A DNA stretch of 64,000 nt from Escherichia coli (lineage in GTDB: Bacteria > Pseudomonadota > Gammaproteobacteria > Enterobacterales > Enterobacteriaceae), in the NCBI RefSeq assembly GCF_044647545.1, contig NZ_CP172818.1; one strand, written 5' to 3'. How positions within the stretch are numbered: the stretch's first letter is position 1; each line of letters begins with the position of its first letter. The notes under the pieces are model-generated. The model worked only from the letters and a program-made list of their open reading frames with translations. It searched no databases and was not told the origin of the DNA. A program made the translations under genes and the position numbers. Of this stretch, positions 41,634 through 62,075 are shown in pieces.

Positions 41634-41643
41634 GAACGAAAAA

Positions 41644-41669
41644 GGCCGCAGAGTTTCCCCCTGCGGCCT
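41644..41669. terminator. Bidirectional hairpin between convergent bcsG and ldrD
   Basis: ggccgcag-agtttccccc-tgcggcc, flanked by an A-run upstream and a T-containing tail downstream. Confidence 0.55.
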
Positions 41670-41718
41670 GATCCGGGCGCAAATTGCCATTACGGCAGCC
41701 TGACGCCCACATGACACG

Positions 41719-41826
41719 TTACTTCCGCTTATTCAGCCAGTTCACGATCAGACTGGCAAGAATGCCAGCAATGACCGGAGCCGCTAAATCATGCCAGAAG
41801 GCCATGCCCAGCTCTGCGAGCGTCAT
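41719..41826 (-). CDS. ldrD: LdrD, type I toxin peptide (35 aa)
   Basis: C-terminal 35 codons of ORF 41719..41994 read MTLAELGMAFWHDLAAPVIAGILASLIVNWLNKRK, the Ldr peptide family; ATG at 41824-41826. Confidence 0.85.
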   Translation of the reverse strand: MTLAELGMAFWHDLAAPVIAGILASLIVNWLNKRK

Positions 41827-41875
41827 ATAGCCGCCTGAGTTGTAATGACAACGTTTCGCGGCTATTCTTGAGTGG

Positions 41876-41941
41876 TCTAGAGTCAAGATTAGCCCCCGTG
41901 ATGTTGTCAGGTGCATACCTGCAACGTGCGGGGGTTTTCTC
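41876..41941 (+). ncRNA. rdlD: RdlD antisense RNA (type I antitoxin of ldrD); approximate coordinates
   Basis: Plus-strand segment opposite the ldrD leader ending in hairpin cccccg...cgggggttttct; position inferred from the known ldr/rdl arrangement, ends not verified. Confidence 0.5.
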
Positions 41942-42301
41942 TCTCCAGCAACCAATGCCACCAGGGATAAAGCCCCCGCAACATTGCGCCTCACCGGAAC
42001 CTTTCCGGCTTGCCACTGATTCTACGATTGCTTTTTACCGTCAGCACCCGGCAATCTTCCTCATTGCGTGATGCATTCCAGCTTAATTTCTTTATTTGCA
42101 ATAGTTGCAGTTCATATCCGGGCTGACTCCAGACTGGTAGTGAAATGCGCATTTTTGTAGAATTGCGCCTCCTCGCGACCTCCCCAGTGAATCTGTTGCC
42201 TCATTTTTTACATACTGCGTATTCGACTTCTCCACCTGTTGCGCAAGAGAAACTGGGTTTATTCATTTTTGCGAGGCCGACTTCTTTCTGGACAGGACTT
42301 T

Positions 42302-43573
42302 ATGCAGCACAACACACTACCGAAACACGATCAGAAAATGCCGTTTACACGCTACGACTTCGGCTGGGTTTTATTATGCATAGGCATGGCGATTGGTGCC
42401 GGAACCGTGCTGATGCCAGTACAAATTGGCTTGAAGGGAATTTGGGTATTTATTACCGCAGCGATCATTGCTTATCCTGCCACCTGGGTAGTGCAGGACA
42501 TTTATTTAAAAACCCTTTCTGAAAGCGATTCCTGTAATGACTACACCGATATTATCAGTCATTACCTGGGGAAGAACTGGGGAATTTTCCTCGGGGTTAT
42601 CTACTTTTTGATGATTATCCACGGGATTTTTATCTACTCTCTCTCCGTGGTTTTCGACAGCGCCTCGTACCTGAAAACCTTCGGTTTAACCGATGCCGAT
42701 CTTTCACAATCTCTACTTTATAAAGTCGCCATTTTCGCCGTACTGGTGGCAATTGCGTCTGGTGGTGAACGATTACTGTTTAAGATTTCCGGGCCAATGG
42801 TGGTGGTCAAAGTAGGGATTATCGTCGTGTTCGGTTTTGCGATGATCCCGCACTGGAATTTCGCCAATATAACCGCCTTCCCGCAAGCCTCCGTCTTTTT
42901 CCGCGATGTCCTGCTTACCATTCCCTTTTGCTTCTTTTCTGCGGTATTTATTCAGGTACTTAACCCAATGAATATTGCCTATCGTAAACGGGAAGCGGAT
43001 AAAGTACTGGCAACCCGGCTCGCGCTGCGTACCCACCGAATTAGTTATGTCACGCTCATCGCGGTGATCCTGTTTTTTGCCTTTTCGTTTACCTTCTCAA
43101 TTAGCCACGAAGAAGCCGTTTCTGCCTTTGAACAAAATATCTCGGCACTGGCACTGGCCGCGCAGGTGATCCCTGGGCATATCATTCATATCACCTCTAC
43201 GGTGCTGAATATCTTTGCCGTACTGACCGCATTCTTTGGCATTTATCTCGGTTTCCACGAGGCCATTAAAGGCATTATTCTCAATCTGTTAAGCCGAATT
43301 ATTGATACCAGGAAAATTAATTCACGCGTGCTGACTCTGGCGATCTGCGCTTTTATCGTCATTACGTTGACGATTTGGGTTTCGTTTCGTGTATCGGTGC
43401 TGGTGTTCTTTCAGTTGGGAAGCCCGTTATATGGCATTGTGTCGTGCCTCATTCCGTTTTTCCTGATCTATAAAGTCGCACAACTGGAAAAACTTCGCGG
43501 ATTTAAAGCCTGGCTGATTCTGCTTTACGGCATTTTGCTATGCTTGTCGCCACTGTTGAAGCTGATTGAGTAA
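42302..43573 (+). CDS. yhjV: Putative amino-acid transporter YhjV (HAAAP/STP family), 423 aa
   Basis: ORF 42239..43573 trimmed to the ATG at 42302 ([22 protein letters not shown]); polytopic membrane protein. Confidence 0.88.
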
Positions 43574-43602
43574 ACCGGAGCGCACGGCCCCGGTTTTGTG
43601 AG

Positions 43603-44607
43603 TTAACGCTGCGGATTTTCATCCTGATCAACAGCAAAACAAGCTACCAGTTGACCGCCGTAGTCTTTTAGCTGCGGCTGCAACTGGGTGCAGGGGCCGA
43701 AGCGCCGACGACAGCGGGCGTTAAACGCGCAGCCCGGCGGTGGATTGAGCGGGCTTGGCAGTTCACCGGTGAGCTTGATGCGCTCGCGGCGATCGTCCGG
43801 GTTCAGGCGCGGCGTCGCGGAGAGTAGCGCCTGAGTGTACGGATGACGCGGGTTATTGAAGATTTGGTCCTTCGTTCCCTTCTCCACGCAGCGGCCCAGG
43901 TACATCACCATCACTTCATCGGCAATGTGCTCAACCACTGACAGGTCGTGGGAGATAAAGACATAAGACAGCCCCAACTCCTGCTGCAAATCCATCATCA
44001 GGTTGAGCACCTGCGCACGCACTGAGACGTCCAGCGCGGAAACCGGCTCATCGGCAATCACCACATCCGGGTCGAGCATCAGACCACGGGCAATGGCGAT
44101 ACGCTGACGCTGACCGCCGGAGAACATATGCGGATAGCGGTCGTAATGCTCGGTTTTCAGGCCGACTTTCGCCATCATCGACAGGGCTTTTTCCCGACGC
44201 TGATCTTTGCTTAAGCTGGTATTAATAAGCAGCGGCTCTTCAAGAATTTGCCCAACTTTTTTACGCGGATTTAGCGAACCATAGGGATTCTGAAAGACGA
44301 TCTGGATTTTCTGCCGACGCAACTTCTGCGCCTGCGGATCGTGCTTGAGCAGATCCTGCCCCTGGTAATACAGCTCACCACCGGTGGGCGTTTCGATCAT
44401 CGTCAGTAACCGACCGAGGGTCGATTTACCGCAGCCAGATTCACCTACTACTGCCAGCGTTTTGCCACGTTCAAGGTTAAACGAAACGCCGTCCAGCGCC
44501 TTCACCAGACGTTCCGGCGCGAACATACCTTTCTTCACCGGATAATGTTTTTTCAGGTCGATAGCCTGCAACAGCGGTTGTTGCGAGGTGGCCTCTTGCG
44601 TACTCAT
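43603..44607 (-). CDS. dppF: Dipeptide ABC transporter ATP-binding protein DppF (334 aa)
   Basis: Walker [10 protein letters not shown] and the ABC signature are visible; last gene of dppABCDF. Confidence 0.95.
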
Positions 44608-45587
44608 AGTGTCGGCCTCCCGGCATCATCAAGTGGGTAGTGGCATTTGGACTGACGCCCGTCAGCGAGCATATTCAGCGCCGGTTCTTCAGCGCGGCAT
44701 TTGTCAGTGGCGTAGGGGCAGCGCGGGTTAAGCAGGCAGCCGTTCGGACGGTCATACTTGCCGGGAACAACACCTGGCAACGACGCCAGACGTTCTTTAT
44801 CCTGAGCAAATTCCGGCAGCGCACGCAGCAATGCCTGAGTATACGGGTGACGCGGCGCATGGAAGATGGCGTGCGCATCGCCCGTTTCTACTACCTGGCC
44901 TGCATACATCACGATAATTTTATGTGCCGCTTCCGCCACCAGCGCCAGGTCATGGGTAATTAACACCAGCGCCATGTTCTCTTTCTGCTGTAGCTCCAGC
45001 AGCAGTTCGATGATTTGCGCCTGAATGGTCACGTCCAGCGCGGTGGTCGGTTCATCGGCAATCAGCAGTTTTGGCCGACAGGCAATCGCTATGGCGATCA
45101 TCACGCGCTGGCTCATGCCGCCGGAAAGCTGATGCGGGTAAACATCCAGACGCGATGCCGGATCGGGAATACCGACCTGATTCAGCAGGTCAATCGCCCG
45201 CTGACGGCGGGTACTTTTGTTGCCGCCCTGATGCACCTTAATCGCTTCCATAATCTGGAAACCCACGGTGTAGCACGGGTTAAGGCTGGTCATCGGGTCC
45301 TGGAAGATCATCGCCACTTCGGCACCCACCAGGTTGCGGCGCTCTTTTTCTGAGATACGCTGTAAATCCTGACCGTTAAACTCCAGCTTTTCCGCCATTA
45401 CGCGGCCCGGATAATCAATCAGCCCCATAATCGCCAGCGAACTGACCGATTTACCAGAGCCGGACTCACCCACAATCCCGACCACTTCGCCCTGTTTTAC
45501 GCTGTAGCTGATGCGGTCTACGGCGCGGAACGGTGCGCTTTCGTCGCCGAAATGCACCGATAATTTATCTACATTTAATAACGCCAT
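44604..45587 (-). CDS. dppD: Dipeptide ABC transporter ATP-binding protein DppD (327 aa)
   Basis: Walker A GESGSGKS; stop overlaps the dppF start by 4 bp. Confidence 0.95.
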
Positions 45588-45597
45588 CTCGAACCTC

Positions 45598-46500
45598 TTA
45601 CTGCTTCAGTTTGGGATCGAGCGCGTCACGCAGACCGTCACCCATCAGGTTAAATGCCAGCACCGTCAGCAGTATCGCCAGACCCGGGAAGGTCACGACC
45701 CACCAGGCGCTTTGCGCAAACTGCAACACGTCGGAGAGCATAGTGCCCCACTCCGGTGTTGGCGGCTGAGCCCCCATGCCGAGGAAACCAAGAGCAGCCA
45801 TATCGAGAATGGCGTTAGAGAAACCGAGCGACGCCTGAACAATCAGCGGCGCAAGGCAGTTCGGGAAGATGTTAATAAACATCTGGCGCATTGCCCCGGC
45901 ACCCGCCACGCGAGACGCGGTGACGTAATCGCGGTTAACTTCCACCAGCACGGCGGCGCGGGTTAAGCGCACATAATGCGGCAGCGCAACGAAGGTTAGC
46001 GCCAGCGCGGCGTTACCAATCGACGGGCCGAAAATCGCCACCAGCACCAGTGCCAGCAGTAGACTTGGCAGCGCCAGCATGATATCGACCACGCGCATGA
46101 TGATGTTATCGACCAGACCGCCAAAGTAACCAGCGATCAGGCCGAGAATAACGCCCATAATCAGCGATAACACCACTACCAGACAGCCAACCAGCAGCGA
46201 CAAGCGCGCGCCGTACATCAGCCGCGACAGCACATCACGCCCCACGTCATCAGTGCCCAGCAAGTGCGCCATGCTGCCGCCTTCCTGCCAGGCTGGCGGG
46301 GCGAGCAGTGCATCGCGGAACTGTTCCGCCGGGTTATAGGGTGCAATCCAGTTGGCAAAGATCGCGATAAACAGCACGATGACGACGTAAACCAGCCCGA
46401 CAACCGCGCCTTTGTTGCGTTTAAAATAGTGCCAGAACTCCTGTAACGGGGTCATCGGCACCGGTGCGCTAATCACTTTATTTTCAGTAACCTGTGACAT
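45598..46500 (-). CDS. dppC: Dipeptide ABC transporter permease DppC (300 aa)
   Basis: ABC permease of 300 aa within the dpp operon. Confidence 0.95.
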
Positions 46501-46509
46501 GATGTCCCC

Positions 46510-47529
46510 TTACTTCTTATGACGAATACGCGGGTTCACCACGCCGTACAGCAAATCGACCAGCAGGTTGACGAGGATAATCATCGTCGCCACCAGCAAT
46601 ACGCCGCCCTGCACTACCGGATAATCGCGGCGTTGCAGTGCGTCAATCAACCAGCGCCCCAGACCGGGCCACGAGAAGATGGTTTCAGTCAGAATCGCCC
46701 CCGCCAGCAATGTTCCCACCTGCAGGCCGATAACGGTCACCACCGGCAGCATCGCGTTACGCAGCGCATGGACGATAATCACCCGCATCCGGGTAAGACC
46801 TTTGGCACGCGCGGTGCGGATATAATCTTCGCCCAGCACTTCCAGCATCGAGGAGCGCGTCATACGCACAATGACCGCCAGCGGGATGGTACCCAGCACA
46901 ATGGCGGGTAGGATCATATGGGCGACGGCATCGATAAAGTTACCGTCTTCACCCCAGATGGCGGTGTCGATCAGCATAAAACCGGTTAACGGATTGGAAT
47001 CATCGAGGAACACCATGTCGCTCACACGACCGGAGACAGGCGTCAGGTTCCAGTGCACCGAAACCAGCATGATCAGCATCATGCCCCACCAGAAAATTGG
47101 CATCGAGTAGCCGGTCAGCGCCAGGCCAACCGCTGTGTGATCGAAAATGGAACCACGTTTAACCGCAGCCAGCACACCAACCGGAATACCGACTGCCGTC
47201 GCAAAAATCATCGCGCAGACGCCAAGTTCCAGCGTAGCCTGAAAGCGCGGCACGAACTCTTCCCATACCGGAATTCGGCTTTTCATGGAAATGCCTAAAT
47301 CACCGTGCATTACGCCCCAAATGTAATGGAGATACTGCTGCCACATCGGTTTATCTAAGCCGAGTTCAGCCAGCAATTGCGCGTGACGCTCTGGGGAGAT
47401 CCCACGCTCGCCCGCCATGATCATCACCGGATCGCCCGGGATCATGTGGACAAAGGCAAATGTGAGAAGGGTAATACCGATAAACGTGGGGATGACGAGT
47501 CCCAAACGTCGGAGAATAAACTGCAACAT
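46510..47529 (-). CDS. dppB: Dipeptide ABC transporter permease DppB (339 aa)
   Basis: ABC permease of 339 aa within the dpp operon. Confidence 0.95.
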   Translation of the reverse strand: MLQFILRRLGLVIPTFIGITLLTFAFVHMIPGDPVMIMAGERGISPERHAQLLAELGLDKPMWQQYLHYIWGVMHGDLGISMKSRIPVWEEFVPRFQATLELGVCAMIFATAVGIPVGVLAAVKRGSIFDHTAVGLALTGYSMPIFWWGMMLIMLVSVHWNLTPVSGRVSDMVFLDDSNPLTGFMLIDTAIWGEDGNFIDAVAHMILPAIVLGTIPLAVIVRMTRSSMLEVLGEDYIRTARAKGLTRMRVIIVHALRNAMLPVVTVIGLQVGTLLAGAILTETIFSWPGLGRWLIDALQRRDYPVVQGGVLLVATMIILVNLLVDLLYGVVNPRIRHKK

Positions 47530-47679
47530 AACCCGGATTCTCTATAATGACCCGCAGCCTGGAACTGCGTGTCTGTATTGCTCACAAATCAATTCCCGCC
47601 TTTGTGGGACAGGGAATGAAGTATTGCTGCCGGATGGCGCTGCACGCAGAGGCACAGCGCCACCGGGTATGGCTTTTAA

Positions 47680-49287
47680 TTATTCGATAGAGACATTTTC
47701 GAAGTGATGTTTGCCTAATGGATCAACCACATAGCCTTTAACTTCTTTGCGTACCGGTTCAAACACGGTGGAGTGAGCGATGATCAGTGCCGGAGCCTGA
47801 TCGTGCATCACGACCTGTGCTTGTTTGTACAGTTCAACACGTTTATTGTGGTCGTCGGTAGCACGCGCCGGTTGAATCAGATCTTCAAACGGTTTGTAGC
47901 ACCATTTTGAGTAGTTGGAGCCTTGTTCAGAGGCGGCGCAGCTGAACAGGGTGGCGAAGAAGTTATCCGGATCCCCGTTATCGCCAGTCCAGCCCATCAT
48001 TACCGTCTGATGCTCGCCATCTTTCGCACGCTTGAGGTACTCACCCCATTCGTAGGTGACGATTTTGGCCTGCACGCCCACTTTCGCCCAGTCTGCCTGA
48101 ATCATCTCCGCCATGCGGCGAGCATTCGGGTTATACGGACGTTGTACTGGCATTGCCCACAGGTCGATGGAGAAACCTTTTTCCAGACCCGCTTCTTTCA
48201 GCAAGGCTTTCGCTTTTTCAGGATCGTAAGTGTAGTCCTGAACGTCGTCGTTATAGCCCCACATGGTTGGCGGGATCAGGTTTTTCGCTGATACGCCCGC
48301 GCCCTGATAAACTGCTTTGATGATGGCGTCTTTGTTCACCGCGTAGGTCAGAGCCTGGCGAACTTTCACGTCATCCAGTGGTTTTTTCTGCACGTTATAC
48401 GAGAGATAACCGACATTCAGCCCCGGCATTTCCATCAGGTTGATGGATTTATCCTGCTTCATGCGGGCGATATCTGCCGGGTTCGGGTACGGCATCACCT
48501 GGCATTCGTTCTTCTGCAATTTCGCGTAACGCACGGAAGCGTCAGGAGTAATAGAGAAGACCAGCGTATCGATCTTCGGTTTGGTGCCCCAGTAGCCATC
48601 AAACGCTTTATAGCGAATACGGGAATCTTTCTGGTACTGCTGTAACTGGAACGGGCCGGTACCGATTGGGTTGAGATCCAGTTTTTCCGGTGTACCGGCT
48701 TTCATCATCGCGTCAGCATATTCTTTTGACAGAATAGAGGCGAAGTCCATTGCCAGGTCAGCGAGGAACGGCGCTTCCGGGCGAGTCAGCACAAACTGAA
48801 CGGTGTTATCGTCCACCTTTTTCACTTCGCTGATCAGCTCCGGCAAGCCCATGCCTTCAAAGTATTCGTAGCTGCCGCCAGAAACTTTATGGTACGGGTT
48901 TTGCGCGTTTTTCTGACGATCGAACGAGAACACCACGTCATCGGCGTTCAGTTCGCGCGTCGGTTTGAATTCTTTATTGTCGTGCCACTTCACACCTTTA
49001 CGCAGATGGAAGGTATAGGTTTTACCGTCTTCGCTGACTTCCCACTTTTCAGCGAGGCCCGGGATCACTTCGGTGGTGCCGATTTTAAATTCAACCAGAC
49101 GGTTATAAAGCGGTACGGAAGAGGCGTCATAGGTGGTGCCGGAGGTAAACAGCTGCGGGTTAAACCCTTCCGGAGATCCTTCTGAGCAATAAACCAGAGT
49201 TTTAGCCTGAACACTTGCTGCGACGGTCATAGCCACCAGGCTGAGACCAAGCTTCAGCATCCCTGACTTTTTCAAGGAAATACGCAT
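47680..49287 (-). CDS. dppA: Periplasmic dipeptide-binding protein DppA (535 aa)
   Basis: Signal peptide MRISLKKSGMLKLGLSLVAMTVAASVQA followed by a family-5 solute-binding domain. Confidence 0.95.
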   Translation of the reverse strand: MRISLKKSGMLKLGLSLVAMTVAASVQAKTLVYCSEGSPEGFNPQLFTSGTTYDASSVPLYNRLVEFKIGTTEVIPGLAEKWEVSEDGKTYTFHLRKGVKWHDNKEFKPTRELNADDVVFSFDRQKNAQNPYHKVSGGSYEYFEGMGLPELISEVKKVDDNTVQFVLTRPEAPFLADLAMDFASILSKEYADAMMKAGTPEKLDLNPIGTGPFQLQQYQKDSRIRYKAFDGYWGTKPKIDTLVFSITPDASVRYAKLQKNECQVMPYPNPADIARMKQDKSINLMEMPGLNVGYLSYNVQKKPLDDVKVRQALTYAVNKDAIIKAVYQGAGVSAKNLIPPTMWGYNDDVQDYTYDPEKAKALLKEAGLEKGFSIDLWAMPVQRPYNPNARRMAEMIQADWAKVGVQAKIVTYEWGEYLKRAKDGEHQTVMMGWTGDNGDPDNFFATLFSCAASEQGSNYSKWCYKPFEDLIQPARATDDHNKRVELYKQAQVVMHDQAPALIIAHSTVFEPVRKEVKGYVVDPLGKHHFENVSIE

Positions 49288-49860
49288 TATTCTGCTCCAA
49301 TTGTGATGTTTGTTGTTTTAACCCTTTGCAGTGGGTTGTCGCCGCCTGACCTTTTTTGTTTTTTGCCCGGTCGGGTCAACGTTATGAGGTGGGGATGCCG
49401 TACTAATTAACATCAGTGTAACAGTGCGGATCCTCCAGAAAATGCCCCTCGTGACCTACAATCTGTCAACAGAATGTGAAAACGTCAATACAGCCAACCG
49501 GGATTTACACCAACGGTGAGAATCAACAAACAAAGATTAAAAAAACTTCAAACAGCTATTTGCAGCAGAGAAATTTGTGCTACGCCAACACAACCAGAAC
49601 AATCAGCTTAATATTTAGCAACATTTGGTGATTAAGTTTTATGCATTTAATGAAAAAAATCTGAGGTAAAGGTGGATATCTGAGCGATTAATACCATGAA
49701 CGCTAAAACGCACAGGGGAAAATGCCAGCGCCAGCCATAAGTAACGCAAAAAAAGATTTAAGCAAATATAAAAAAAGACAATGGTTTCTGTCACAAATCC
49801 GTTAATGGATAGTGAGATATGGGGCGCAAATTTGGCAGGGAAATGTGTGGTGTGTAGATC

Positions 49861-49937
49861 GGATAAGGCGGTCGCGCCGCATCCGACAATGGGCCGGTAC
49901 ATTTGCCTGATGCGACGCTGACGCGCCTTATCAGGCC
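49861..49937. repeat. REP/BIME cluster upstream of dppA
   Basis: ggataaggcggtcgcgccgcatccgac and gcctgatgcgacgctgacgcgccttatcaggcc are REP-type palindromic units. Confidence 0.7.
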
Positions 49938-50149
49938 TGCATCGAGTCGAACCTCCTTGTCCCCCGATAAGACCGGTATTTCAATCACCACATGAGACTT
50001 CAGACGCATACAAGCTCTGCATCAATTAGCATGCTAATTTCGCCTTTGCAGTGACAGCTGATATACACGTGCTTCTGGCCAGCCCTGCGGCCTTTAACAG
50101 GTCAGACTGGCAGTGTCCGCACCTCAGGTTCTGGATGACTTTCGCTTTT

Positions 50150-50690
50150 TCTCCAGCTCCAGGCCCTTTTTTTCCAGGAGATGCTCCTGCATGGCTTTCA
50201 GATATTCATTTTTGGGCGGAAAATACGCGGGTCTTTTTTTCTCTCTTTCCGGGTTCTGTTTTCCTCGTTTTTATGGGTGTCATCAAAAAGGGGTTTGCTT
50301 TTCTCCTTCCTGCGCCTTAAAAAGGCCTCATCACCAGATTTTTTGGTTCCTTTTTTCCCATTTTTTAACCGGTTTTGGGTGGGGAAGTTTAAACCGGGGG
50401 GCGCCCGGGGGAGAGACACAATAACCGAGAGGATAAAAAAACACGCAAAGTTTTTTTTTTGGAGAAAAGAGCGCTGGTGTGTGTGTACAATGGTGTGAGA
50501 GGGGGGAGGAGAAAAAAAAAAAATATAGTGTGGGAGGGGGGGGTGTGAAAGAGGTAATATTGTTGTGGTAGAGAAGATATGACGACATGAGGGGAGGTGA
50601 TGTTTTATGGGGGGGTGTTTTTTTTAATATATGTGTGTTATATACTGTGCTTTTAGATGTGAGATAATGTTTGATATATGGGCAGTTCAT
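50150..50690. other. Anomalous low-complexity block (homopolymers T9-T10, A12-13, G8; (TG)n; near C-free stretch) between dppA and proK
   Basis: Directly visible composition anomaly: tttttttttt, aaaaaaaaaaaaa, gggggggg and gtgtgtgtgt runs, open in nearly all six frames with no protein-like ORF. Nature unknown; artefact suspected. Confidence 0.6.
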
Positions 50691-50697
50691 GGCGCGT

Positions 50698-50727
50698 CTT
50701 ATCAGGCCTACGTCGAATCGAACCTCC
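50698..50727. repeat. 30-bp REP-like direct repeat, 27/30 identical to 49927-49956, bracketing the anomalous block
   Basis: cttatcaggcctacgtcgaatcgaacctcc versus cttatcaggcctgcatcgagtcgaacctcc at 49927-49956. Confidence 0.6.
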
Positions 50728-50765
50728 CCGCCCCCGGGGGTTCTCTTCCTCATGAGCTACAGATG

Positions 50766-50797
50766 CAAAAAAGCCTGCTCGTTGAGCAGGCTTTTCG
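50766..50797 (-). terminator. proK rho-independent terminator
   Basis: Hairpin gcctgctc-gttg-agcaggc immediately 3' of the tRNA on the minus strand, followed by a short T-run on that strand. Confidence 0.65.
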
Positions 50798-50801
50798 AAT
50801 T

Positions 50802-50878
<77 letters not shown>

Positions 50879-50969
50879 AATGCGGGGCGCATCTTACTGC
50901 GCAGATACGCCCTCGTCAATCCCTTAATAGCAAAATGCCTTTTGATCGGCGAGAAAGTCAGCAGGCTTC

Positions 50970-52661
50970 TTAGTTAGCCGCTGCCTCTTTTGCCTGCGGG
51001 ATGTGGCACCAGTTGTTGTTTTCGTTAATTCCACCATCCGGTGAAGTATAGCCAAGACACCCCATGATGGTGTCGTACAGCTCTACATGACGGCGTGGCA
51101 CTTTCATGTCGGCTTCTTTTTTCAGCTGCGCAAATGCCTGCGCATTGACCGGATTTTCCAGATATTTATCCGACATCCAGACCATCATCGGCACACGGAA
51201 CTGTTCCGGCGGTGCCAGTTCACGCGGCGTGCCGTGCAGGTGCTCGCGTTCATTAATTGACTCACCGTGGTCAGCTGCATAGAACACAATCGCTTTCTTA
51301 TCGCGAACCTGATCAATCACGCTGGAAATAAAGTGATCCACATAGGTCACCGAGTTGTCGTATGAGTTGATCATCTGCGCTTTGGTACAGCCGCTATCAA
51401 CACCAATACATTCCGGCTTCCACTGCGCAAAGCTGCGCGGGTAACGCTGGGTGTAGTTAAAGTGTGAGCCTTTGGTATGCAGAATGATCAGATGCTTACC
51501 ATCCGGGTTGCGCCCCAGCGACTGCTGCATTTCGTCTACCAGCAACATATCATCTACCGGTTTGCCACGGTTACGTGGCTCCGCACCAATCTGCTCACGA
51601 TAAGCAATGTTGTCCGCCATCGTATTGCTGTAGAACCACATTTCGCTTTGCATAGCGTAGAGATCAGAAGTGAATCCTAACTGCTTCAGCACCGCGAAAA
51701 TATTCTGTTCTTTTAATGTGCGCTGCGGATTATCTTCTGCTCCACCCTGACGTACAAACATGCAACGCAGTGAGAGTTTGGTTGCAGTATCACAGGAGTA
51801 ACCACGGAACGCCGCCAGATTTTTCTCCTGAGCCAGTTTCGGTGTGGTATTGCGTTCATAGCCGAAAATGCCCATATGATCCCAGCGCGTGGTTTCACCA
51901 ATAATGAAAACGACATATGTATCATCAACGTTTTGTGGAGCCTGGTACGTAAACTTCTTCGCAGGGTTAAGGAGAGAATTGTTATCGGAAGATTCATCGA
52001 CCCGCGCCCAGGCATAAAGACCTAATGCCGAAAGCCAGTTTGATGGCAGATAAGAGTTCGCGACGACGCCGCCATAACTCGGCAAATCAACACCTGTCGC
52101 CCTCTCCACTTTCTTCTGCTGGATATCCAGCAAACGAATCGGTGCCCAAACCATAATACCTGCCAGTACGACGACCGCCAGGCTGCGAATACGCTGCCCT
52201 GGGGTTCGCAGTTGTCGGAGCAAGGTGTAACGACAGCGGTTATTCCAGATAAGGATAAGAGGCAACGCGCTTACGGCGATTAACCAGAGAATAAAGTTCA
52301 GACCAACAACTTCTTTTGACAGGTCGATATCGGTGGTCATGACGGATGCGATGATGCCATAACCAATGACTACATTAAGGAAGGTCATGTAATAGCTGGC
52401 ACCTGCGGAAAAGAGCACCACCAGCGATGCCAGAATACGCCAGCTGCGGCGGCCAAACAGCGAAAGAAGACGTAGTAAAAAGAAGGTCACCAGTACGGTG
52501 GCAGCCAGTTCAACAACAGCAGAAATGCCTTTCCAGACGGTAAAATCGTGCGCATAGCTGCCGAAACGGCGGTAAAAAACCGCGCCATTCATAAAAAGGC
52601 CAATATAGATTGCAAGCAAAAAGCTCAGCTTCTGCTGTGTAATCGATTTGATGTATCTCAT
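50970..52661 (-). CDS. eptB: Kdo2-lipid A phosphoethanolamine transferase EptB (563 aa)
   Basis: ORF 50970..52694 trimmed to [23 protein letters not shown] at 52659-52661; N-terminal TM segments plus sulfatase-like domain. Confidence 0.92.
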
Positions 52662-52984
52662 GCAAACAAACCCTGGACAAACAGGTGATAACACCCTGCT
52701 TAGCGGCTTTTCAGGCCCGGCAGGGGAAAAGTGCGGAGGTAGTCAGATAAGTAAAATCTACACGCGCGAATAAGTAGACCACAGCAAAGGGAAAAAGTGT
52801 GGGGAAAGAGTGTGCATGAAGCACAAATTTACAAAAATGCAAGTTTGAAAAGAGACTTTAGCGTTACAAAAAGCAGTAAAAAGGGCCAGTTAACTGGCCC
52901 AAATTTTACGCGTCATTGTTTATACATTGCGTTGAAGCGTTTGATTCACACTAAGGCTAAAGCCCAGTAGCTCGCGGCAGATGA

Positions 52985-54193
52985 TTAAAGGGAGCCATGC
53001 GCCTCACGCAACATTTTCTGCTCTGGCTGACGAATCGTCGTAGAGAGCGCCAGTGACAGAATCAGCAGGGCAAAAATGACGTAGAAAGTCACATAGAAGC
53101 CGCCAAACAGTGAGGCGATAATCGACCCACAAATGCTGCCGATACCGAAACCGAGATAAATCACACCGTAGTTTTTCGCCAGGTTATTGAGGCCGAAGAA
53201 CTCACTGACCAGTGACGGGAACACCGTGATAGTGCCGCCAAAGTTAAACGCCACGCAGGCAATCGCTGCAAAGAACGTCACTGCATTCAATGGTGCAAAC
53301 AGCAGGGCCGCCATACCCACCAGCGATATCACCTGACCAATGGTGATAACACGGATACGGGCGATTTTGTCAGACAGAATACCCAGCACCAGACGACCAG
53401 AAAGGTTGGCGATGGAAATAACCGTCACAGCATTGGCTGCGGAAATTGCATCAAGATGCGCCAGACTTTGAGCGATATCTTTCGCTACACCAATCACATA
53501 CAGACCACTCATGCACGCAGTCAGGAACATAACCGCTAACATCCAGTACTGCGGTTTACGCATCGACTCTGCCAGGGTGTAGTCCTTCTCCACCACACCA
53601 TTGCTGGTTTTCACTTCCTGCTTCGGCGCATCTTTCATTAACGTTGCGCCAAAGACAATCATCACCAGTACAATCGCGCCCCAAATAACAAAGGTTTTTT
53701 CCAGACCCACCGTTTCGAGCAGGTGCGTGTCGATAAATTTAAAACCCAGGCTGCCCAGACCATAAGAACCGATAGCAAAAGCAGAGATAAGTCCCTTACG
53801 CTCCGGAAACCACTTCACGCAGTTAGAGAGCGTCAGCAGGTAACCCGCGCCATCCGCCAGACCGACCAGCACACCGGCGCTTAACCACAGCATCATCAGG
53901 TTGTTGGAATGCGCGGTCAGGAAGAAGCCTAATCCCAGCAAAATGCCGGAAGCCATGGTGACGCGTTTAACGCCAAAACGTTCCTGCAATTTGCCCGCAA
54001 CAGAAGATGAAATTGCCAGCCCCAGACTTAACAAGCCGAAAGAGAAAGCAACCTGGCTTACAGGAGCCCCCAGCTTGGCAGAAAGCGCACCGTTAAACAG
54101 ACTCCAGGTATAAACCGACCCCAGAGCAAACTGGGTAATGATAGTACCGATGAGTGTCAGCCAGCGAGTACGCTGATAATTTGAAGGTGTCAT
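52985..54193 (-). CDS. yhjX: MFS transporter YhjX (oxalate/formate antiporter family), 402 aa
   Basis: ORF 52985..54238 trimmed to MTPSNYQRTRWLTLIGTIITQFALGSVYTW at 54191-54193. Confidence 0.9.
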   Translation of the reverse strand: MTPSNYQRTRWLTLIGTIITQFALGSVYTWSLFNGALSAKLGAPVSQVAFSFGLLSLGLAISSSVAGKLQERFGVKRVTMASGILLGLGFFLTAHSNNLMMLWLSAGVLVGLADGAGYLLTLSNCVKWFPERKGLISAFAIGSYGLGSLGFKFIDTHLLETVGLEKTFVIWGAIVLVMIVFGATLMKDAPKQEVKTSNGVVEKDYTLAESMRKPQYWMLAVMFLTACMSGLYVIGVAKDIAQSLAHLDAISAANAVTVISIANLSGRLVLGILSDKIARIRVITIGQVISLVGMAALLFAPLNAVTFFAAIACVAFNFGGTITVFPSLVSEFFGLNNLAKNYGVIYLGFGIGSICGSIIASLFGGFYVTFYVIFALLILSLALSTTIRQPEQKMLREAHGSL

Positions 54194-54421
54194 GGCAGTA
54201 TTCCTGCAGTAATAAAAAGGAAAAATCTCTGCTGACAACCATAACGAAGTGCGCTTTATGCCTGGGGAAAAACGGCATGAAATGCCATCAGAACGGAATG
54301 AAATGCATTAGTTCAGGAATGAATGACTCGACAATTATTCGCCAAATTTATTATTTAGTAAGTTAGTCCCCACTATCGCCACATTAGTTGTTATTTATGG
54401 GTTTCAATTGTATCTATAACG

Positions 54422-55120
54422 TTAAAATCTGGCACTAACCCCCATCGTATACAGATAGTCGCTATTGTTAGTGGTATTTTCTGCCTGAGATAGCGCCGCA
54501 TAGGCAGCAATATTTTGATTGAGCAACATATCAGCGCCTACGGTGACATCCAGCCAGTTGCCGTTCTGGTTTGTCGCCGTCATCCGGCTCAGGCCTGATT
54601 GCGCCTTCCAGATATTCTCGCCAAATTGCTGGTTATAGCTGATTTGCGCCCAGGGTCGGAGATCGCCAAGCCGGGAGTCAACACGCCAGCCTAAAGTACT
54701 CACGCTGGCATGCCATAACGGATCAGTCAGCGTGGTAGTACTGTCGCCAAACTCGTTATACATCGAGGTGGTTGTGCCATCGTAATGTAATGCCGCGACC
54801 GGACCGGTTGTAACCTGTTGATATAAAGGAAAATTCCACCCCATACTCATACTACTGGTGACATCCACAGGGGTTTCTTCCGCCAGATTGACTTCCAGTC
54901 CCAGCGCCCTTTGGCTACTTTGAATACGTTGCGACAAAATATCGTTGTAATCAGGTTGATGATCGCTATCCCAGGTGTAACGCTCTGTGGAATGTCCGGG
55001 TTGCGTATCAACGATATATTCTTGTTGCCAGGCGTAAGCTGTGTTGAGAAAAAAGGCACTGATTACCACGCTCACCAGCAGGCTTAGCTGCCAGCGACCA
55101 CCGCTTTTTTTTATGATCAT
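54422..55120 (-). CDS. yhjY: Autotransporter-beta-domain-like outer-membrane protein YhjY (232 aa)
   Basis: ORF 54422..55126 begins at GTG; trimmed to the ATG at 55118-55120 (MIIKKSGGRWQLSLL). C-terminal ...YTMGVSARF is beta-barrel-like. Confidence 0.8.
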   Translation of the reverse strand: MIIKKSGGRWQLSLLVSVVISAFFLNTAYAWQQEYIVDTQPGHSTERYTWDSDHQPDYNDILSQRIQSSQRALGLEVNLAEETPVDVTSSMSMGWNFPLYQQVTTGPVAALHYDGTTTSMYNEFGDSTTTLTDPLWHASVSTLGWRVDSRLGDLRPWAQISYNQQFGENIWKAQSGLSRMTATNQNGNWLDVTVGADMLLNQNIAAYAALSQAENTTNNSDYLYTMGVSARF

Positions 55121-55277
55121 TAACACGACTCCAGGGAAGAGCCGAATTCGGCAATATTATTGTCATTGTATGAAGGATATCGGGCATAGTAGCCCTGTAT
55201 TAAATATTGACTTTTTCACCGATGCGTCAAGAAAAGCGGCTGAAATTTTTACGATCGGGTACATAGCGAGGGAAAGT

Positions 55278-55841
55278 ATGGAACGTTGCGGCTGGGTGAG
55301 TCAGGACCCGCTTTATATTGCCTACCATGATAATGAATGGGGCGTGCCTGAAACTGACAGTAAAAAACTGTTCGAAATGATCTGCCTTGAAGGGCAGCAG
55401 GCTGGATTATCGTGGATCACCGTCCTCAAAAAACGCGAAAACTATCGCGCCAGCTTTCATCAGTTCGATCCGGTGAAGGTGGCAGCAATGCAGGAAGAGG
55501 ATGTCGAAAGACTGGTACAGGACGCCGGGATTATCCGCCATCGCGGGAAAATTCAGGCAATTATTGGTAATGCGCGGGCGTACCTGCAAATGGAACAGAA
55601 CGGCGAACCGTTTGCCGACTTTGTCTGGTCGTTTGTCAATCATCAACCACAGGTGACACAAGCCACAACGTTGAGCGAAATCCCTACATCTACGCCCGCC
55701 TCCGACGCTCTATCTAAAGCCCTGAAAAAGCGTGGTTTTAAGTTTGTTGGTACCACAATCTGTTACTCCTTTATGCAGGCATGTGGGCTGGTGAATGATC
55801 ATGTGGTTGGCTGCTGTTGCTATCCGGGAAATAAACCATGA
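55278..55841 (+). CDS. tag: 3-methyladenine DNA glycosylase I (187 aa)
   Basis: ORF 55041..55841 trimmed to the ATG at 55278 (MERCGWVSQDPLYIAYHDNEWGVP); Cys-rich C-terminus. Confidence 0.92.
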   Translation: MERCGWVSQDPLYIAYHDNEWGVPETDSKKLFEMICLEGQQAGLSWITVLKKRENYRASFHQFDPVKVAAMQEEDVERLVQDAGIIRHRGKIQAIIGNARAYLQMEQNGEPFADFVWSFVNHQPQVTQATTLSEIPTSTPASDALSKALKKRGFKFVGTTICYSFMQACGLVNDHVVGCCCYPGNKP

Positions 55842-56278
55842 TTCGGGAAGCGCAACGTTCAGAACTCCCCGCGATCCTCGAACTGTGGCTGGAAAGTACA
55901 ACCTGGGGGCATCCCTTTATAAAAGCGAATTACTGGCGTGATTGCATTCCGCTGGTGCGGGATGCCTATCTTGCCAACGCGCAAAACTGGGTCTGGGAAG
56001 AAGACGGTAAGCTTCTCGGTTTTGTCAGCATTATGGAAGGCCGATTTCTGGCTGCAATGTTTGTCGCACCGAAGGCCGTCAGACGCGGTATTGGTAAGGC
56101 GCTAATGCAGTATGTGCAGCAGCGCCATCCCCATCTGATGCTGGAGGTTTATCAAAAAAATCAACCGGCGATAGATTTTTACCAGGCGCAGGGTTTTCAC
56201 ATTGTCGATTGCGCATGGCAGGATGAAACCCAACTACCCACCTGGATTATGAGCTGGCCGGTGGTTCAAACGCTGTAA
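55838..56278 (+). CDS. yiaC: GNAT-family N-acetyltransferase YiaC (146 aa)
   Basis: 146-aa GNAT-like ORF whose ATG overlaps the tag stop (ATGA). Confidence 0.88.
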
Positions 56279-58580
56279 GTGTCAGTTCCGGACCGTTGTA
56301 TTTTTCCAGCCATGCCAGCGCCGTATTACCCGCACAGCCATTCCCCAGCCGCGAGCTGGGGAGATCTTTGGTCAGAACGTTCACCGCGCCGTTTTTACAA
56401 ATACCGTCAGCGGTTAAATCCAGATCCGGCCATGCCCCTTCATGAATGCAAATCACGCCAGGTTTAATTCCCTCGCTAATGACCGCTCCGGCAAGAATTT
56501 GCCCGCGTGCGTTCCACAGCCGAACAGTATCGCCATCTTGTATGCCGCGCGCCTGAGCATCGTCAGGATGAATGGTGACAGGCTCACGGTTTGCCACCGC
56601 GTACAATTCGCGCAGAGAACTGTAATTCAGCTGGCTGTGCAGACGATGTGCCGGATGAGCAGAAAGTACCTGCAACTGTTCCGGTTCGGCATTGCCCTGC
56701 CATTCGTCCGGCTCCAGCCACATTGGATGCCCCGGGCAATCCGGATAAGCGTAATCAGCAATACGCTGCGAGAAGATTTCAATCTTGCCGCTGGCGGTTT
56801 TTAATGGATGCGCCTGCGGATCGCGGCGAAAATCGGCGAAGCGAATAAACCGCTCGCTGTCCGGGTTTTCCGGCATCTCAATTAACTGGTTGGCTTCCCA
56901 TAACTCAGCAAATGGCGGCAATTCAACCTGCTGGCTTGCCCCGCGCTGCCGGGCAACGTTATAAAACGTTTCCAGCCATTGCAGCTCACTTTTTCCTTCC
57001 GTAAACCGCGCATAGCCGCCCTTCTCCCAACGTTCACTCAACTCGGCAAAGACATCAAAATCATTACGCGCTTCATAACGTGGAGGCACCACTTGCTTCA
57101 TCGGCACCAGATGCTGATTACTGTAATCGCCGGTCATGGTGAGATCATTACGCTCAAACGAAGTGGTCGCAGGCAGAACGATATCCGCGTGTTTCGCCGC
57201 AGCCGTCCAGAAGCATTCAGAGATCACCACCAGCTCCGGTTTTTGCCAGGCACGGATCAGGCGATTGGTATCCTGATGATGAGTAAAGTTGGCACCGCCC
57301 GCCCACCAGATAAAACGAATATCCGGGAAATGTCGGTCCATACCGTTATGTTGATATGCGCCACCAGGGTTTTCCAGTGCTTCAACAATGCGGGCGACAG
57401 GGATTTTATCTACCGCATCGGTGCCACCCGGCAAGCTGCCCTGCATGGAAGAGAGCACCGCAGCGCGGCGCGTGGGGTTACCACCATTGGCAAAATGGTA
57501 AGAAAGACCAAAACCGCCGCCGGGTGTGCCGATTTGCCCCAACATTGCCGCCAGCGTGACGAGCATCCAGTGTTTTTGCTCACCAAACTGTTGGCGCTGC
57601 ATTCCCCAGCCTGCCATCAGCATGGTGGTATTTTGGTGGAAAATAGCCGCCAGCTCGCGGATTTTCGCTGCGCCAACACCACAAATCTCTGCCGCCCATT
57701 CGGCGTTTTTCGCTATACCGTCACTCTCGCCCAGCAAATAAGAGGCGAAGACGGCATAACCTGTGGTGCAACGCGCCAGAAACGCTTCGTCGTGCCAACC
57801 ATTTTCCACCAGCGTATGGGCGATCCCCAGCATCAACGCAACATCGGTGCCCATGTGCGGAGCCACCCATTCCATTTTATCGCCAAAGAAATCGACGGTT
57901 TCCGATCGCATTGGATCAATGCAGATCAGCTTTTTCCCGCTGTCACGCAGTGCGGAAAAGTAAGAAAGCCCCTGCTCATCGGATGCATTCCACGCAATTT
58001 TCAGCGTATTGAGTGGGTTAGCACTCCATAGCACCACGACATCGCTATGTTCCAATACCAACGGCCAACTGGTTTGCTGTTGATAAACTTCGCTGCCCCC
58101 CACGACATACGGCATGATCGCCTGTGCTGCACCGGTCGAATAATCCCCCAGATGCCCGGTATAACCGCCTGCAAGCGCCATATAGCGTTGTAATAATGTC
58201 GAGGCCTTATGCAGCACGCCGTTTGAACGCCAGCCGTAGGAACCAGCAAAAATCGATGCCGGACCATAAGCCTCACGAATACGTTTATGTTGATGGTGAA
58301 TAAGCTCCAGCGCCTCATCCCAACTCACGCGAACAAATTCATCCTGCCCACGAATGCCTTGCGGATTTTCCGGTGACGCAAGAAAGCCTTTGCGCACCAT
58401 TGGAAATCGCACCCGCGTATTGCTGTGAACCTGGTCGCGAACCGCGCTCTGCAAGGAGTTTTCCATTCCTGTGGCTAACGCGCCACGCGAGCTAAACACG
58501 GTTTCGCCGTCGGTTTCAACCAGCATAGGCCCCCAGTGGGCGGCAGTCAGAACGGAATATCGTGAGGATGAGTTGGCCAA
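56247..58580 (-). CDS. bisC: Biotin sulfoxide reductase, molybdopterin oxidoreductase (777 aa)
   Basis: 777-aa DMSO-reductase-family ORF with N-terminus [19 protein letters not shown]; its 3' end overlaps the 3' end of yiaC. Confidence 0.93.
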
Positions 58581-58732
58581 ACCGAAGACTCCTGAAAGGT
58601 TAGATGTATTGAGCAGTTAAATATTACTTACAAATTTCCGAGTATTCCCAGGAATAATCTTCATGCTCACGCGGCATAATCTCCCGCCACGGAACCCGTG
58701 GCAAAGAATAAAAAGGTTATTAAGGATTAACA

Positions 58733-59392
58733 ATGAAGAAACGTGTTTATCTTATTGCCGCCGTAGTGAGTGGCGCTCTGGCGGTATCTGGCTGTACAAC
58801 TAACCCTTACACCGGCGAACGCGAAGCAGGTAAATCTGCTATCGGCGCAGGTCTGGGCTCTCTCGTTGGCGCGGGTATTGGTGCGCTCTCTTCTTCGAAG
58901 AAAGATCGCGGTAAAGGCGCGCTCATTGGCGCAGCAGCAGGCGCAGCTCTGGGCGGCGGCGTTGGTTATTACATGGATGTGCAGGAAGCGAAGCTGCGTG
59001 ACAAAATGCGCGGCACTGGTGTTAGCGTAACCCGCAGCGGGGATAACATTATCCTCAATATGCCGAACAATGTGACCTTCGACAGCAGCAGCGCAACCCT
59101 GAAACCGGCGGGCGCTAACACCCTGACCGGCGTGGCAATGGTACTGAAAGAGTATCCGAAAACGGCGGTTAACGTGATTGGTTATACCGACAGCACGGGG
59201 GGTCACGACCTGAACATGCGTCTCTCCCAGCAGCGTGCGGATTCCGTTGCCAGCGCGTTGATCACCCAGGGCGTGGACGCCAGCCGCATCCGTACTCAGG
59301 GCCTTGGCCCGGCTAACCCAATCGCCAGCAACAGCACCGCAGAAGGTAAGGCGCAAAACCGCCGTGTAGAAATTACCTTAAGCCCACTGTAA
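58733..59392 (+). CDS. yiaD: OmpA-domain outer-membrane lipoprotein YiaD (219 aa)
   Basis: Lipobox LAVSGC, Gly-rich segment and a C-terminal OmpA-like peptidoglycan-binding domain (NRRVEI). Confidence 0.92.
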   Translation: MKKRVYLIAAVVSGALAVSGCTTNPYTGEREAGKSAIGAGLGSLVGAGIGALSSSKKDRGKGALIGAAAGAALGGGVGYYMDVQEAKLRDKMRGTGVSVTRSGDNIILNMPNNVTFDSSSATLKPAGANTLTGVAMVLKEYPKTAVNVIGYTDSTGGHDLNMRLSQQRADSVASALITQGVDASRIRTQGLGPANPIASNSTAEGKAQNRRVEITLSPL

Positions 59393-59495
59393 TCCCTTTC
59401 ATGTCAGGTGATGCAGAAATCACCTGGCATTCTTCAGTTTTCCTTCATCATATTTCAGGCTAAGGTGATCGCCTTATCAGTGAATGGAGAGAAGC

Positions 59496-60470
59496 ATGAA
59501 GCCGTCCGTTATCCTCTACAAAGCCTTACCTGATGATTTACTGCAACGCCTGCAAGAACATTTCACCGTTCACCAGGTAGCAAACCTCAGCCCACAAACC
59601 GTCGAACAAAATGCAGCAATTTTTGCCGAAGCTGAAGGCTTGCTGGGTTCAAATGAGAATGTTGATGCCGCATTGCTGGAAAAAATGCCGAAACTGCGTG
59701 CCACATCAACGATCTCCGTCGGCTATGACAATTTTGATGTCGATGCGCTTACCGCCCGAAAAATTCTGCTGATGCACACACCAACCGTATTAACAGAAAC
59801 CGTCGCCGATACGCTGATGGCGCTGGTGTTGTCTACCGCTCGTCGGGTTGTGGAGGTAGCAGAACGGGTAAAAGCAGGCGAATGGACCGCGAGCATAGGC
59901 CCGGACTGGTACGGCACTGACGTTCACCATAAAACACTGGGCATTGTCGGGATGGGACGGATCGGCATGGCGCTGGCACAACGTGCGCACTTTGGCTTCA
60001 ACATGCCCATCCTCTATAACGCGCGTCGCCACCATAAAGAAGCAGAAGAACGCTTCAACGCCCGCTACTGCGATTTGGATACTCTGTTACAAGAGTCAGA
60101 TTTCGTTTGTCTGATCCTGCCGTTAACGGATGAGACGCATCATCTGTTTGGCGCAGAACAATTCGCCAAAATGAAACCCTCCGCCATTTTCATTAATGCC
60201 GGACGTGGCCCGGTGGTTGATGAAAATGCACTGATTGCTGCATTGCAGAAAGGCGAAATTCACGCCGCCGGGCTGGATGTCTTCGAACAAGAGCCACTGT
60301 CCGTAGATTCGCCGTTGCTCTCAATGGCCAACGTCGTCGCAGTACCGCATATTGGATCTGCCACCCATGAGACGCGTTATGGCATGGCCGCCTGTGCCGT
60401 GGATAATTTGATTGATGCGTTACAAGGAAAGGTTGAGAAGAACTGTGTGAATCCGCACGTCGCGGACTAA
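59496..60470 (+). CDS. ghrB: Glyoxylate/hydroxypyruvate reductase B (2-ketoaldonate reductase), 324 aa
   Basis: ORF 59484..60470 trimmed to the ATG at 59496 ([16 protein letters not shown]); D-isomer 2-hydroxyacid dehydrogenase with NAD motif GIVGMGRIG. Confidence 0.92.
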
Positions 60471-60519
60471 GCCGCGACTGCGTGGAGTAAAGCCCGATAA
60501 TCGCTCGGGCTTTTACTCT

Positions 60520-61230
60520 TTATTGGGTTGCAGTAACTGCTGTAGTCCAGGCCTGATTAAACGCCTGATGCTGTGCCGGTAATGGCGCAATCAGTTTGTT
60601 ATATTCACTTGCCTGCTGTGACGTCGGGAACTGGATGCCATTTGCGACAAAGCTCACCTGAGTACCTTGCTGAGCAATGTAGTCTCCAACCATCACCAGT
60701 TGTTGCGTGAAAGTTTGTGCAGCCGGAATCAACGGTTGCAATGCATCAGCTGGCGTCGTTACCACTTTGGTGAATGCCTGATCAAAGACCGGTTTCAGGT
60801 CATCACTCTGTTTTAACGCAGAGTGTGCAGCATCGGCCTGCAACTTCGCATTTTGCAGCTGTTGCGCCAGCACACCCAGCGAACCGTTCATTTCACGCAG
60901 TGGGCCGCTTTGCGTAACGTAATCCTGCGGTACGCGAATTGCGTTAACGCTGTCTACAACCGGGCGCAGACCGGAATCCATCGCCTGATTCACCTGCTGT
61001 GAATAACCATACAGAATCGCGTAATCAGAGACAAAAGGACCAAACTGTTTTTTCTGATCGGCAGTCAGGGTTGGTAGACGTTCACCGCTACGCATCACTG
61101 TATTCTGCAGGAAGTCGATAAACGCTTTACGCTGATCGCCTTCTTTATCAAAACACCCACTCAGGCTAACTACCATTAATAACGCCGCAAGAGGCGCAAA
61201 CCAGCGAGAGCAGGACTTTCCTGTCGCCAT
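60520..61230 (-). CDS. yiaF: Putative lipoprotein YiaF (236 aa)
   Basis: ORF 60520..61350 trimmed to MATGKSCSRWFAPLAALLMVVSLSGC (lipobox) at 61228-61230. Confidence 0.85.
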   Translation of the reverse strand: MATGKSCSRWFAPLAALLMVVSLSGCFDKEGDQRKAFIDFLQNTVMRSGERLPTLTADQKKQFGPFVSDYAILYGYSQQVNQAMDSGLRPVVDSVNAIRVPQDYVTQSGPLREMNGSLGVLAQQLQNAKLQADAAHSALKQSDDLKPVFDQAFTKVVTTPADALQPLIPAAQTFTQQLVMVGDYIAQQGTQVSFVANGIQFPTSQQASEYNKLIAPLPAQHQAFNQAWTTAVTATQ

Positions 61231-61663
61231 TTTCTTACTCCTTTCACCCAAAAAAAGCGCACAACGACACACGCGTGTCTGACGTGACAAGGATAGTCCA
61301 GGACAGGCTTGCAGGATACCCTTTCTACGTAATCTTCCTGGTAAAATCATGGAGAAAATGAAACAAGGTTAATTTGTTGTTTCATTGTTAAAAAATGATA
61401 GTGCCGTTGCTTTTTTTGTAGCCAGAGATTTACGCCTTCTCAGAACGTTAGATTTTCGAAATCTTTACAAACCGGGAGTGGTAAGAGATATATCGGCATT
61501 TATCAGATCGTTAGGTGGCTATAAGTCACGCTAAATGACTGGCTGAATCGAATCATAGCCAGAGCATGCCCTGACTACACCCCGCTGTGTCTGTTTTTCC
61601 CGACTATTCTTAATGAGCTTCGATGCAATTCACGATCCCGCAGTGTGATTTGAGGAGTTTTCA

Positions 61664-61954
61664 ATGGAATATAAAGATCCAATGCATGAGCTGTTGAGCA
61701 GCCTGGAACAGATTGTTTTTAAAGATGAAACGCAGAAAATTACCCTGACGCACAGAACAACGTCCTGTACCGAAATTGAGCAGTTACGAAAAGGGACAGG
61801 GTTAAAAATCGATGATTTCGCCCGGGTTTTGGGCGTATCAGTCGCCATGGTAAAGGAATGGGAATCCAGACGCGTGAAGCCTTCAAGTGCCGAACTAAAA
61901 TTGATGCGTTTGATTCAAGCCAACCCGGCATTAAGTAAGCAGTTGATGGAATAG
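61664..61954 (+). CDS. yiaG: HTH (XRE/Cro-type) transcriptional regulator YiaG (96 aa)
   Basis: 96-aa ORF with an HTH motif around GLKIDDFARVLGVSVAMVKEWESRR. Confidence 0.88.
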   Translation: MEYKDPMHELLSSLEQIVFKDETQKITLTHRTTSCTEIEQLRKGTGLKIDDFARVLGVSVAMVKEWESRRVKPSSAELKLMRLIQANPALSKQLME

Positions 61955-61980
61955 ACTTTTATCCACTTTATTGCTGTTTA

Positions 61981-62067: not shown

Positions 62068-62075
62068 GCACATCA

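Follow-up and report, generated by a model that had tools for sequence, protein, structure and literature searches.

A low-complexity block between dppA and proK in an Escherichia coli assembly is very probably a gap-filling artefact over IS1397

We analysed a window of 64,000 nucleotides from Escherichia coli (contig NZ_CP172818.1), in which an initial annotation had singled out a block of extreme low-complexity sequence at 50150-50690. The block lies between dppA and proK, where it had been placed. Both genes are on the minus strand (Table 1). The start codon of dppA is at about 49287 by correspondence with annotated relatives. The proK gene and its terminator are intact, identical to relatives and outside the garbled stretch described below. 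The terminator was missed by a consensus terminator scan and was revealed by direct folding of the RNA (-18.3 kcal/mol, z = -3.65).

Upstream of dppA is a pair of REP sequences that reaches 63.3 bits on the Rfam family naRNA4, whose gathering score is 59.5. This match to a REP-derived nucleoid-associated RNA family extends into a garbled copy of the right half of the REP. The loop of the second REP is the target of an insertion sequence (IS), which enters directly after position 49920 (...GATGCGACGCTG). The dppA start codon is about 630 bp downstream of this point and at least about 860 bp from the block itself. In NZ_CP098904 the site is empty and reads GCCTGATGCGACGC-TGGC-GCGTCTTATCAGGC (GACGC-TGGC-GCGTC), with a single TGGC that continues to the right as GCGTCTTATCAGGCC. 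Directly to the right of the target REP in the window, at 50708-50735, the sequence CGAATCGAACCTCCCCGCCCC resembles the 3' end of a tRNA (T-arm and acceptor) and is oriented like proK (GGATTCGAACCTCCGACCCC). This fragment may be an old duplicate of a tRNA end or an att remnant. It is conserved in all relatives inspected, and a G+C hairpin follows it at 50725-50740.

Table 1. Features of the dppA-proK region, in positions of the window; IS positions are approximate and refer to the full-length element.
Feature	Positions	Strand	Basis or remark
REP pair (BIME), upstream of dppA	49857-49937	+	Rfam naRNA4/REP-derived family
Garbled second copy of 46 bp from the right of the IS	49921-49966	+	Clean copy at 50688-50735
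Noisy IS1397 interior, ~IS 572-637, orfB region	49956-50027	+	Alignment to FDAARGOS_497
IS1397 resuming, ~IS 757-810	50028-50074	+	85% identity, 5 deleted bases
Clean IS1397, ~IS 811-931	50075-50195	+	1 difference in 121 columns
Progressively degraded IS1397, ~IS 932-1424	50196-50678	+	Errors rising from 19% to 35%; low-complexity block of the initial annotation
T7 runs	50167 and 50234
A7 run	50435
T10 run	50451-50460
A12 run	50512-50523
G8 run	50536-50543
G7 run	50609-50615
T8 run	50618-50625
Last 8 bp of IS1397 (GCAGTTCA), correct	50679-50686	+	Alignment to FDAARGOS_497
TGGC, right copy of the 4-bp target-site duplication	50687-50690		FDAARGOS_497 flanks, TGGC-IS-TGGC
Right half of target REP, then tRNA-3'-end-like fragment and G+C hairpin	50691-50740	+	Identical in relatives
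proK intrinsic terminator	50759-50796	-	13-pair stem then U6, identical to relatives
proK, tRNA-Pro(CGG)	50802-50878	-	ARAGORN; Rfam tRNA 60.7 bits

The composition of the block is abnormal. Homopolymers of at least five bases occur at 33 per kb in 50150-50690 against 4.3 per kb in the rest of the 64 kb, and 8 of the 24 runs of at least seven bases in the whole window fall in this 0.85% of its sequence. The long T, G and A runs reported initially are present (T10, G8 and G7), with the longest A run being A12 where 12-13 had been given. A stretch of about 200 bp had been described as nearly devoid of C, and the lowest C content of all 200-nt windows in the 64 kb (2.5%) is indeed at 50481-50680; GC skew reaches +0.91. 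The (TG)n runs are likewise visible, at 50477-50487 and 50634-50640. Two other statements needed correction. The region 50150-50690 is abnormal as claimed, but the full abnormal stretch is larger, from 49921 to 50686, with a clean part inside it at 50075-50195. The open reading frames of the block (73-140 aa) are artefacts. They had been said to encode nothing protein-like, which fails in one respect: the longest of them, on the minus strand, keeps a residual likeness to the OrfA protein of IS1397, in wrecked form (BLASTP E=1e-11).

Comparison with other genomes accounts for this likeness. The block matches a region between dppA and proK annotated as 'IS3 family transposase' at 75% over its full length (82% including the flank), and it aligns end to end and colinearly with the right 676 bp of IS1397, an element of the IS3 family. 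In the genome FDAARGOS_497 (NZ_CP033850.1), the copy between dppA and proK is 1432 bp long, in agreement with the length of IS1397 itself. This element has the ends TGAACTG...CAGTTCA, with TGAACTG(A/C)ACCCCAAA... at both ends, and the filled site, at positions 1210655-1212092 of that genome, reads TGGC-IS-TGGC. The element carries orfA and orfB with an annotated programmed frameshift (-1), and on the NCBIfam model NF033516 transpos_IS3 the OrfB protein reaches 299 bits. The terminal 50 bp at each end are 96-98% identical to RefSeq features named 'IS3-like element IS1397 family transposase' in many genomes. IS1397 has been described as an E. coli element that inserts specifically into REP, or palindromic units (PMC1525189, citing Clement et al. 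1999; Wilde et al. 2001, 2003), and in CFT073 its insertion is at the centre of a REP (PMC1525189, supplement 13). Sequence comparison thus identifies the element beneath the block as IS1397, a known element in a known kind of site, the name resting on RefSeq annotation and on PMC1525189 with its supplement.

The dppA-proK REP is occupied by IS1397 in 218 of 5426 complete E. coli genomes. A search of the same 5426 genomes found the block sequence in none of them. An exact 46-mer from the block had no match in metagenome contigs or GTDB representative genomes. Exact look-up of the products of the 140-aa and 105-aa ORFs also returned nothing, a weak negative in both cases, as the choice of start codon may explain it. 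The possibility raised earlier, a genuine strain-specific insertion, is partly right: beneath the noise there is a real insertion of IS1397, but it is not specific to the strain.

One of the genomes with the IS at dppA-proK is FDAARGOS_497, from which the window differs at one base over about 61 kb. This count leaves out four discordant spots, namely the patch at 16151-16216, the ldr repeat, the low-complexity block and the end of an IS150. Apart from that one base, the two sequences match over 717-16150, 16217-41650, 42037-49920 and 50687-62813. This near-identity places the strain in a lineage that carries IS1397 at dppA-proK. The sequence of the block is private to one assembly, while a nearly identical genome carries the clean version.

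In the yhjD-yhjE intergenic region, a hairpin-rich repeat (CCCCTCGCCCCTTCG...) contains an indel-rich patch of 65 bp (16151-16216) that is private to the assembly, with about 23 inserted or deleted bases and 1 substitution relative to FDAARGOS_497 and NZ_CP098904. Its best match among the 5426 genomes is 88.1%, and it is probably another local defect of sequence quality. The ldr/rdl toxin-antitoxin repeat region (41636-42036) has a single ldr copy in the window (41719-41826), compared with four tandem units in FDAARGOS_497 and two in NZ_CP098904; the difference may be either a tandem repeat collapsed in the assembly or genuine variation in copy number. Beside hokA, at 62820-64000, is an IS150 with the same junction as in FDAARGOS_497 and the opposite orientation, which is the orientation found in NZ_CP098904. 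This copy differs from that of FDAARGOS_497 at 14 of 1184 positions; the neighbouring 12 kb are identical.

Alignment to FDAARGOS_497 resolves the garbled stretch into pieces (Table 1). Identity to relatives holds up to 49920, which is precisely where the IS has its left edge. Beyond that edge, the left end of IS1397 and approximately its first 571 bp are replaced by the garbled 46-bp copy of the right flank. This patch has 8 substitutions and 1 indel relative to the empty-site continuation. It is nearer to the K-12/O157-type allele (46/52) than to that of the lineage to which the window belongs; a K-12-type allele of the empty site reads, for example, GCTGACGCGTC...GTCGAGTCG. Compared with the lineage flank, its substitutions are transitions only, three of them common to the K-12/O157-type allele. 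Searches of the 5426 genomes with 49915-50062 and with 49916-49985, aimed at a closer source of the patch (a paralogous REP, for example), gave nothing that surpassed the K-12/O157-type dppA-proK empty site. The patch is joined to the noisy IS interior that follows through the microhomology CCCCCG. At the next junction, near 50027, about 119 bp of the IS are missing between CATCA(G/A) repeats. The deletion junctions of this left part occur in none of the 5426 complete E. coli genomes, in which the best match to the left region covers 46% of the query, at only 79%.

To the right of these junctions the element is recognisable throughout. The clean part corresponds to the 3' part of orfA and the frameshift region (minus strand), and the degraded part that follows it to the 5' part of orfA and the terminal inverted repeat. 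Identity to the IS is about 80% at 50196-50465 and about 65% at 50466-50686, and identity to relatives returns to 100% from 50679 onward. In all, about 690 bp of the IS are missing. Most of orfB is gone, and orfA survives in ruined form, at 38% identity over 68 aa. The right terminus (GCAGTTCA) is the only IS end to survive; the left end of IS1397 was not found anywhere in the 64-kb window. The edges of the garbled stretch coincide with those of the repeat, the left one falling at the left boundary of the IS (49920/49921) and the right one 8 bp inside its right boundary.

The errors themselves are strongly patterned. Relative to FDAARGOS_497, 141 of 640 alignment columns are in error. The rate in successive segments is 0.8%, 19%, 21%, 35% and 34%, and then 0 (Spearman p = 1e-11), rising along the plus strand. 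There are 54 transversions and 37 transitions. Of the C that are lost, 38 are substituted and 12 deleted, and no more than 3 substitutions lead to a C; insertions are mainly of T and G. Over the codon positions of orfA the substitutions are even (29/23/28). Most wrong bases (78 of 91, or 86%) equal the reference base 1-2 nt upstream on the plus strand. The base at -2 is matched by 62 of the 91, compared with 36% under shuffling, and only 57 of the 91 match a downstream base. The lag of the wrong bases and the gradient of the errors have the same direction. Runs of at least five bases number 18 in the window and 4 in the uncorrupted homologous segment, and the noise sets in about 25-30 nt past a T7 run.

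Could this pattern have arisen by ordinary mutation of a real, strain-specific and internally deleted remnant of IS1397? Homology to IS1397 extends over the whole length, remnants of insertion sequences are common, and the left patch, with transitions only, is what natural divergence gives. Decay to 65-80% identity would have needed a very long time, yet the flanks of about 61 kb differ at one base, a rate at which natural divergence predicts approximately 0 differences in 650 bp, and a single difference is present in the neighbouring 120 bp of that IS. The divergence rises monotonically and breaks off sharply at the end of the IS, transversions exceed transitions, C is lost selectively and the wrong bases copy their upstream neighbours. 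This form is moreover absent from the 218 genomes with an IS at dppA-proK and from all the others searched. The gradient, the spectrum and flanks that are nearly identical led us to reject natural decay, and we regard a decayed remnant as very improbable.

A second biological reading is that localized hypermutation or slippage acted on a real IS and built homopolymeric, phase-variable tracts upstream of dppA. The extreme density of homopolymers and the strand-asymmetric composition would suit such a process, and the block has one promoter-like match, on the minus strand, in a region where the number of such matches is not above shuffled expectation. The uncorrupted copy, with its 4 runs of at least five bases, gives no support to the earlier idea of a slippage-prone tract. 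A contingency locus would have its tract in an ORF or promoter, conserved with variation in length; the tracts here are absent in all relatives, which leaves no sign of a maintained locus, and they involve no intact ORF or known promoter, the start codon of dppA being some 630 bp from the insertion site. We know of no bacterial process with such a graded spectrum, one that turns C into G, T or A, adds indels and copies upstream bases over 500 bp, and ends at the terminus of an IS. Deaminase-type and DGR-type mutation give spectra of a single class, which the block does not resemble. We consider hypermutation or slippage to be hardly credible as the origin of the block. The same holds for the form in which IS1397 was struck by an undescribed, strand-directional and graded hypermutation that erased C and built long homopolymers: since the 61-kb flanks show one difference from the relative, all of this would have had to happen within an evolutionary instant, and we give that form next to no credence.

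The error pattern is not that of mutation, deamination or slippage, and the spectrum is non-biological. A graded, strand-directional lag combined with erasure of C and inflation of homopolymers points instead to a deteriorating single-pass read or to an out-of-phase mixed trace, in either case running from left to right. The latter would also be an artefact, produced by the superimposed traces of a mixed template rather than by simple decay at the end of a read. The template could have been PCR products of unequal length from gap closure or a population polymorphic for the IS, with the left patch coming from an IS-free template, for instance a K-12 cloning host or a contaminant. That 62 of 91 wrong bases are the true base exactly 2 nt upstream is what one would expect of a copy that lags by 2 nt; the onset of noise after the T7 run, the resemblance of the left patch to the K-12/O157-type empty-site allele and the position of the deletion junctions at microhomologies, as PCR template switching gives, are consistent with it as well. 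The rising error rate and the inflated homopolymers fit a loss of resolution equally, however, and by sequence alone a mixed template is inseparable from read-tail decay. We regard it as possible though doubtful, and as another version of the best explanation more than a genuine competitor to it, the sequence being wrong in either case.

That best explanation is that the block represents a gap, induced by a repeat and filled with a poor single-pass read, and hence that it is an artefact written over a known IS, which we hold to be very probable. A sequencing or assembly artefact had also been the leading explanation in the initial annotation, and it is supported by the privacy of the sequence, by the directional gradient of errors and by edges that are those of a multicopy repeat. 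Two further spots peculiar to the assembly, the patch at 16151-16216 and the reduced ldr array, also suit a problem of assembly. The real locus would be an ordinary 1432-bp IS1397 in the dppA-proK REP, as in near-identical relatives. Assemblies break at the ends of multicopy repeats, and with IS1397 present in several copies the assembly would have come apart on either side of the element. What lay between would then have been bridged by essentially one single-pass read, running from left to right on the plus strand. This read would have been clean for about 120 nt, after which the calls decayed, with earlier bases bleeding into later ones, C disappearing and homopolymers growing longer; finally, 8 bp inside the end of the IS, the read would have overlapped the good contig on the right. 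On the left side, it may have been joined through short microhomologies to further low-quality sequence, a manner of joining that would account for the loss of about 690 bp and for the spurious 46-bp copy of the flank. With a full-length IS, the real locus would most likely be about 668 bp longer than the assembly shows.

As to technology, we infer the tail of a Sanger-type read. The noise profiles of 454, Ion Torrent, PacBio, nanopore and Illumina poly-G are a poorer fit than such a tail to noise that is graded, rich in substitutions, homopolymer-inflating and spread over about 650 nt; we set them aside on their general error profiles, as a matter of judgement rather than proof. A normal Sanger read would be expected to stay clean for longer than about 120 nt. 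The window is otherwise of very high quality, which runs counter to an artefact in so far as the assembly is not generally poor. The left patch, with its transitions and its likeness to the K-12/O157-type allele, is not predicted by read-tail noise and needs a second source. The likeliest source would be a poor read from IS-free E. coli DNA, whether of a cloning host or of a contaminant, or a chimeric gap-closure PCR product.

The value of these observations is practical rather than biological. The record misrepresents the dppA-proK locus, and its spurious ORFs and homopolymers should not be used for annotation or typing, nor read as regulatory or phase-variable features. The underlying biology, IS1397 in a REP loop in 218 of 5426 genomes, is already known, and the block adds no new biological feature to it. 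The case does provide a recipe for recognizing filler sequence without reads: the suspect stretch is aligned to a clean copy in a near-identical genome, the errors are tested for a gradient and for one-directional copying of neighbouring bases, and the overlap of the stretch with repeat edges is checked. It also flags further local defects in the same assembly, namely the patch at 16151-16216 and the possibly collapsed ldr array.

The locus has some resemblance to tRNA-associated genomic islands, being located 3' of a tRNA gene, with a tRNA-3'-end-like fragment nearby (50708-50735). Unlike the insertions of such islands, this one is in the loop of a REP, 111 bp past the 3' end of proK and past its terminator, so that the initial suggestion of an island integrating at the tRNA is unsupported. 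It has a 4-bp duplication and not a direct repeat of the tRNA end, and the element encodes only a DDE transposase, with no integrase. We rejected a genomic island at proK on the insertion point and the gene content.

Compared with IS1397, the window shares the insertion at the centre of a REP and the TGGC duplication, a geometry like that of the CFT073 site, and its underlying sequence is colinear with the 1432-bp element with TG...CA ends and an orfA/orfB frameshift. It differs in having only about 740 of the 1432 bp, with both reading frames destroyed, in lacking the left inverted repeat and in having 19-35% wrong bases over the last 490 bp. As written, the block could be neither a functional nor a naturally decayed IS1397.

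The window can also be compared with repeat-induced assembly gaps closed by low-quality single-pass reads. Its clean zone is unusually short, and a further cause has to be sought for the left junctions, where a flank of foreign allele type is duplicated and two internal deletions occur. As in such closures, the sequence is bounded by repeat edges, the errors rise along one strand and also lag that way, and homopolymers are called too long. The sequence belongs to one assembly, and that assembly also has a second garbled, hairpin-rich patch and what may be a collapsed tandem array.
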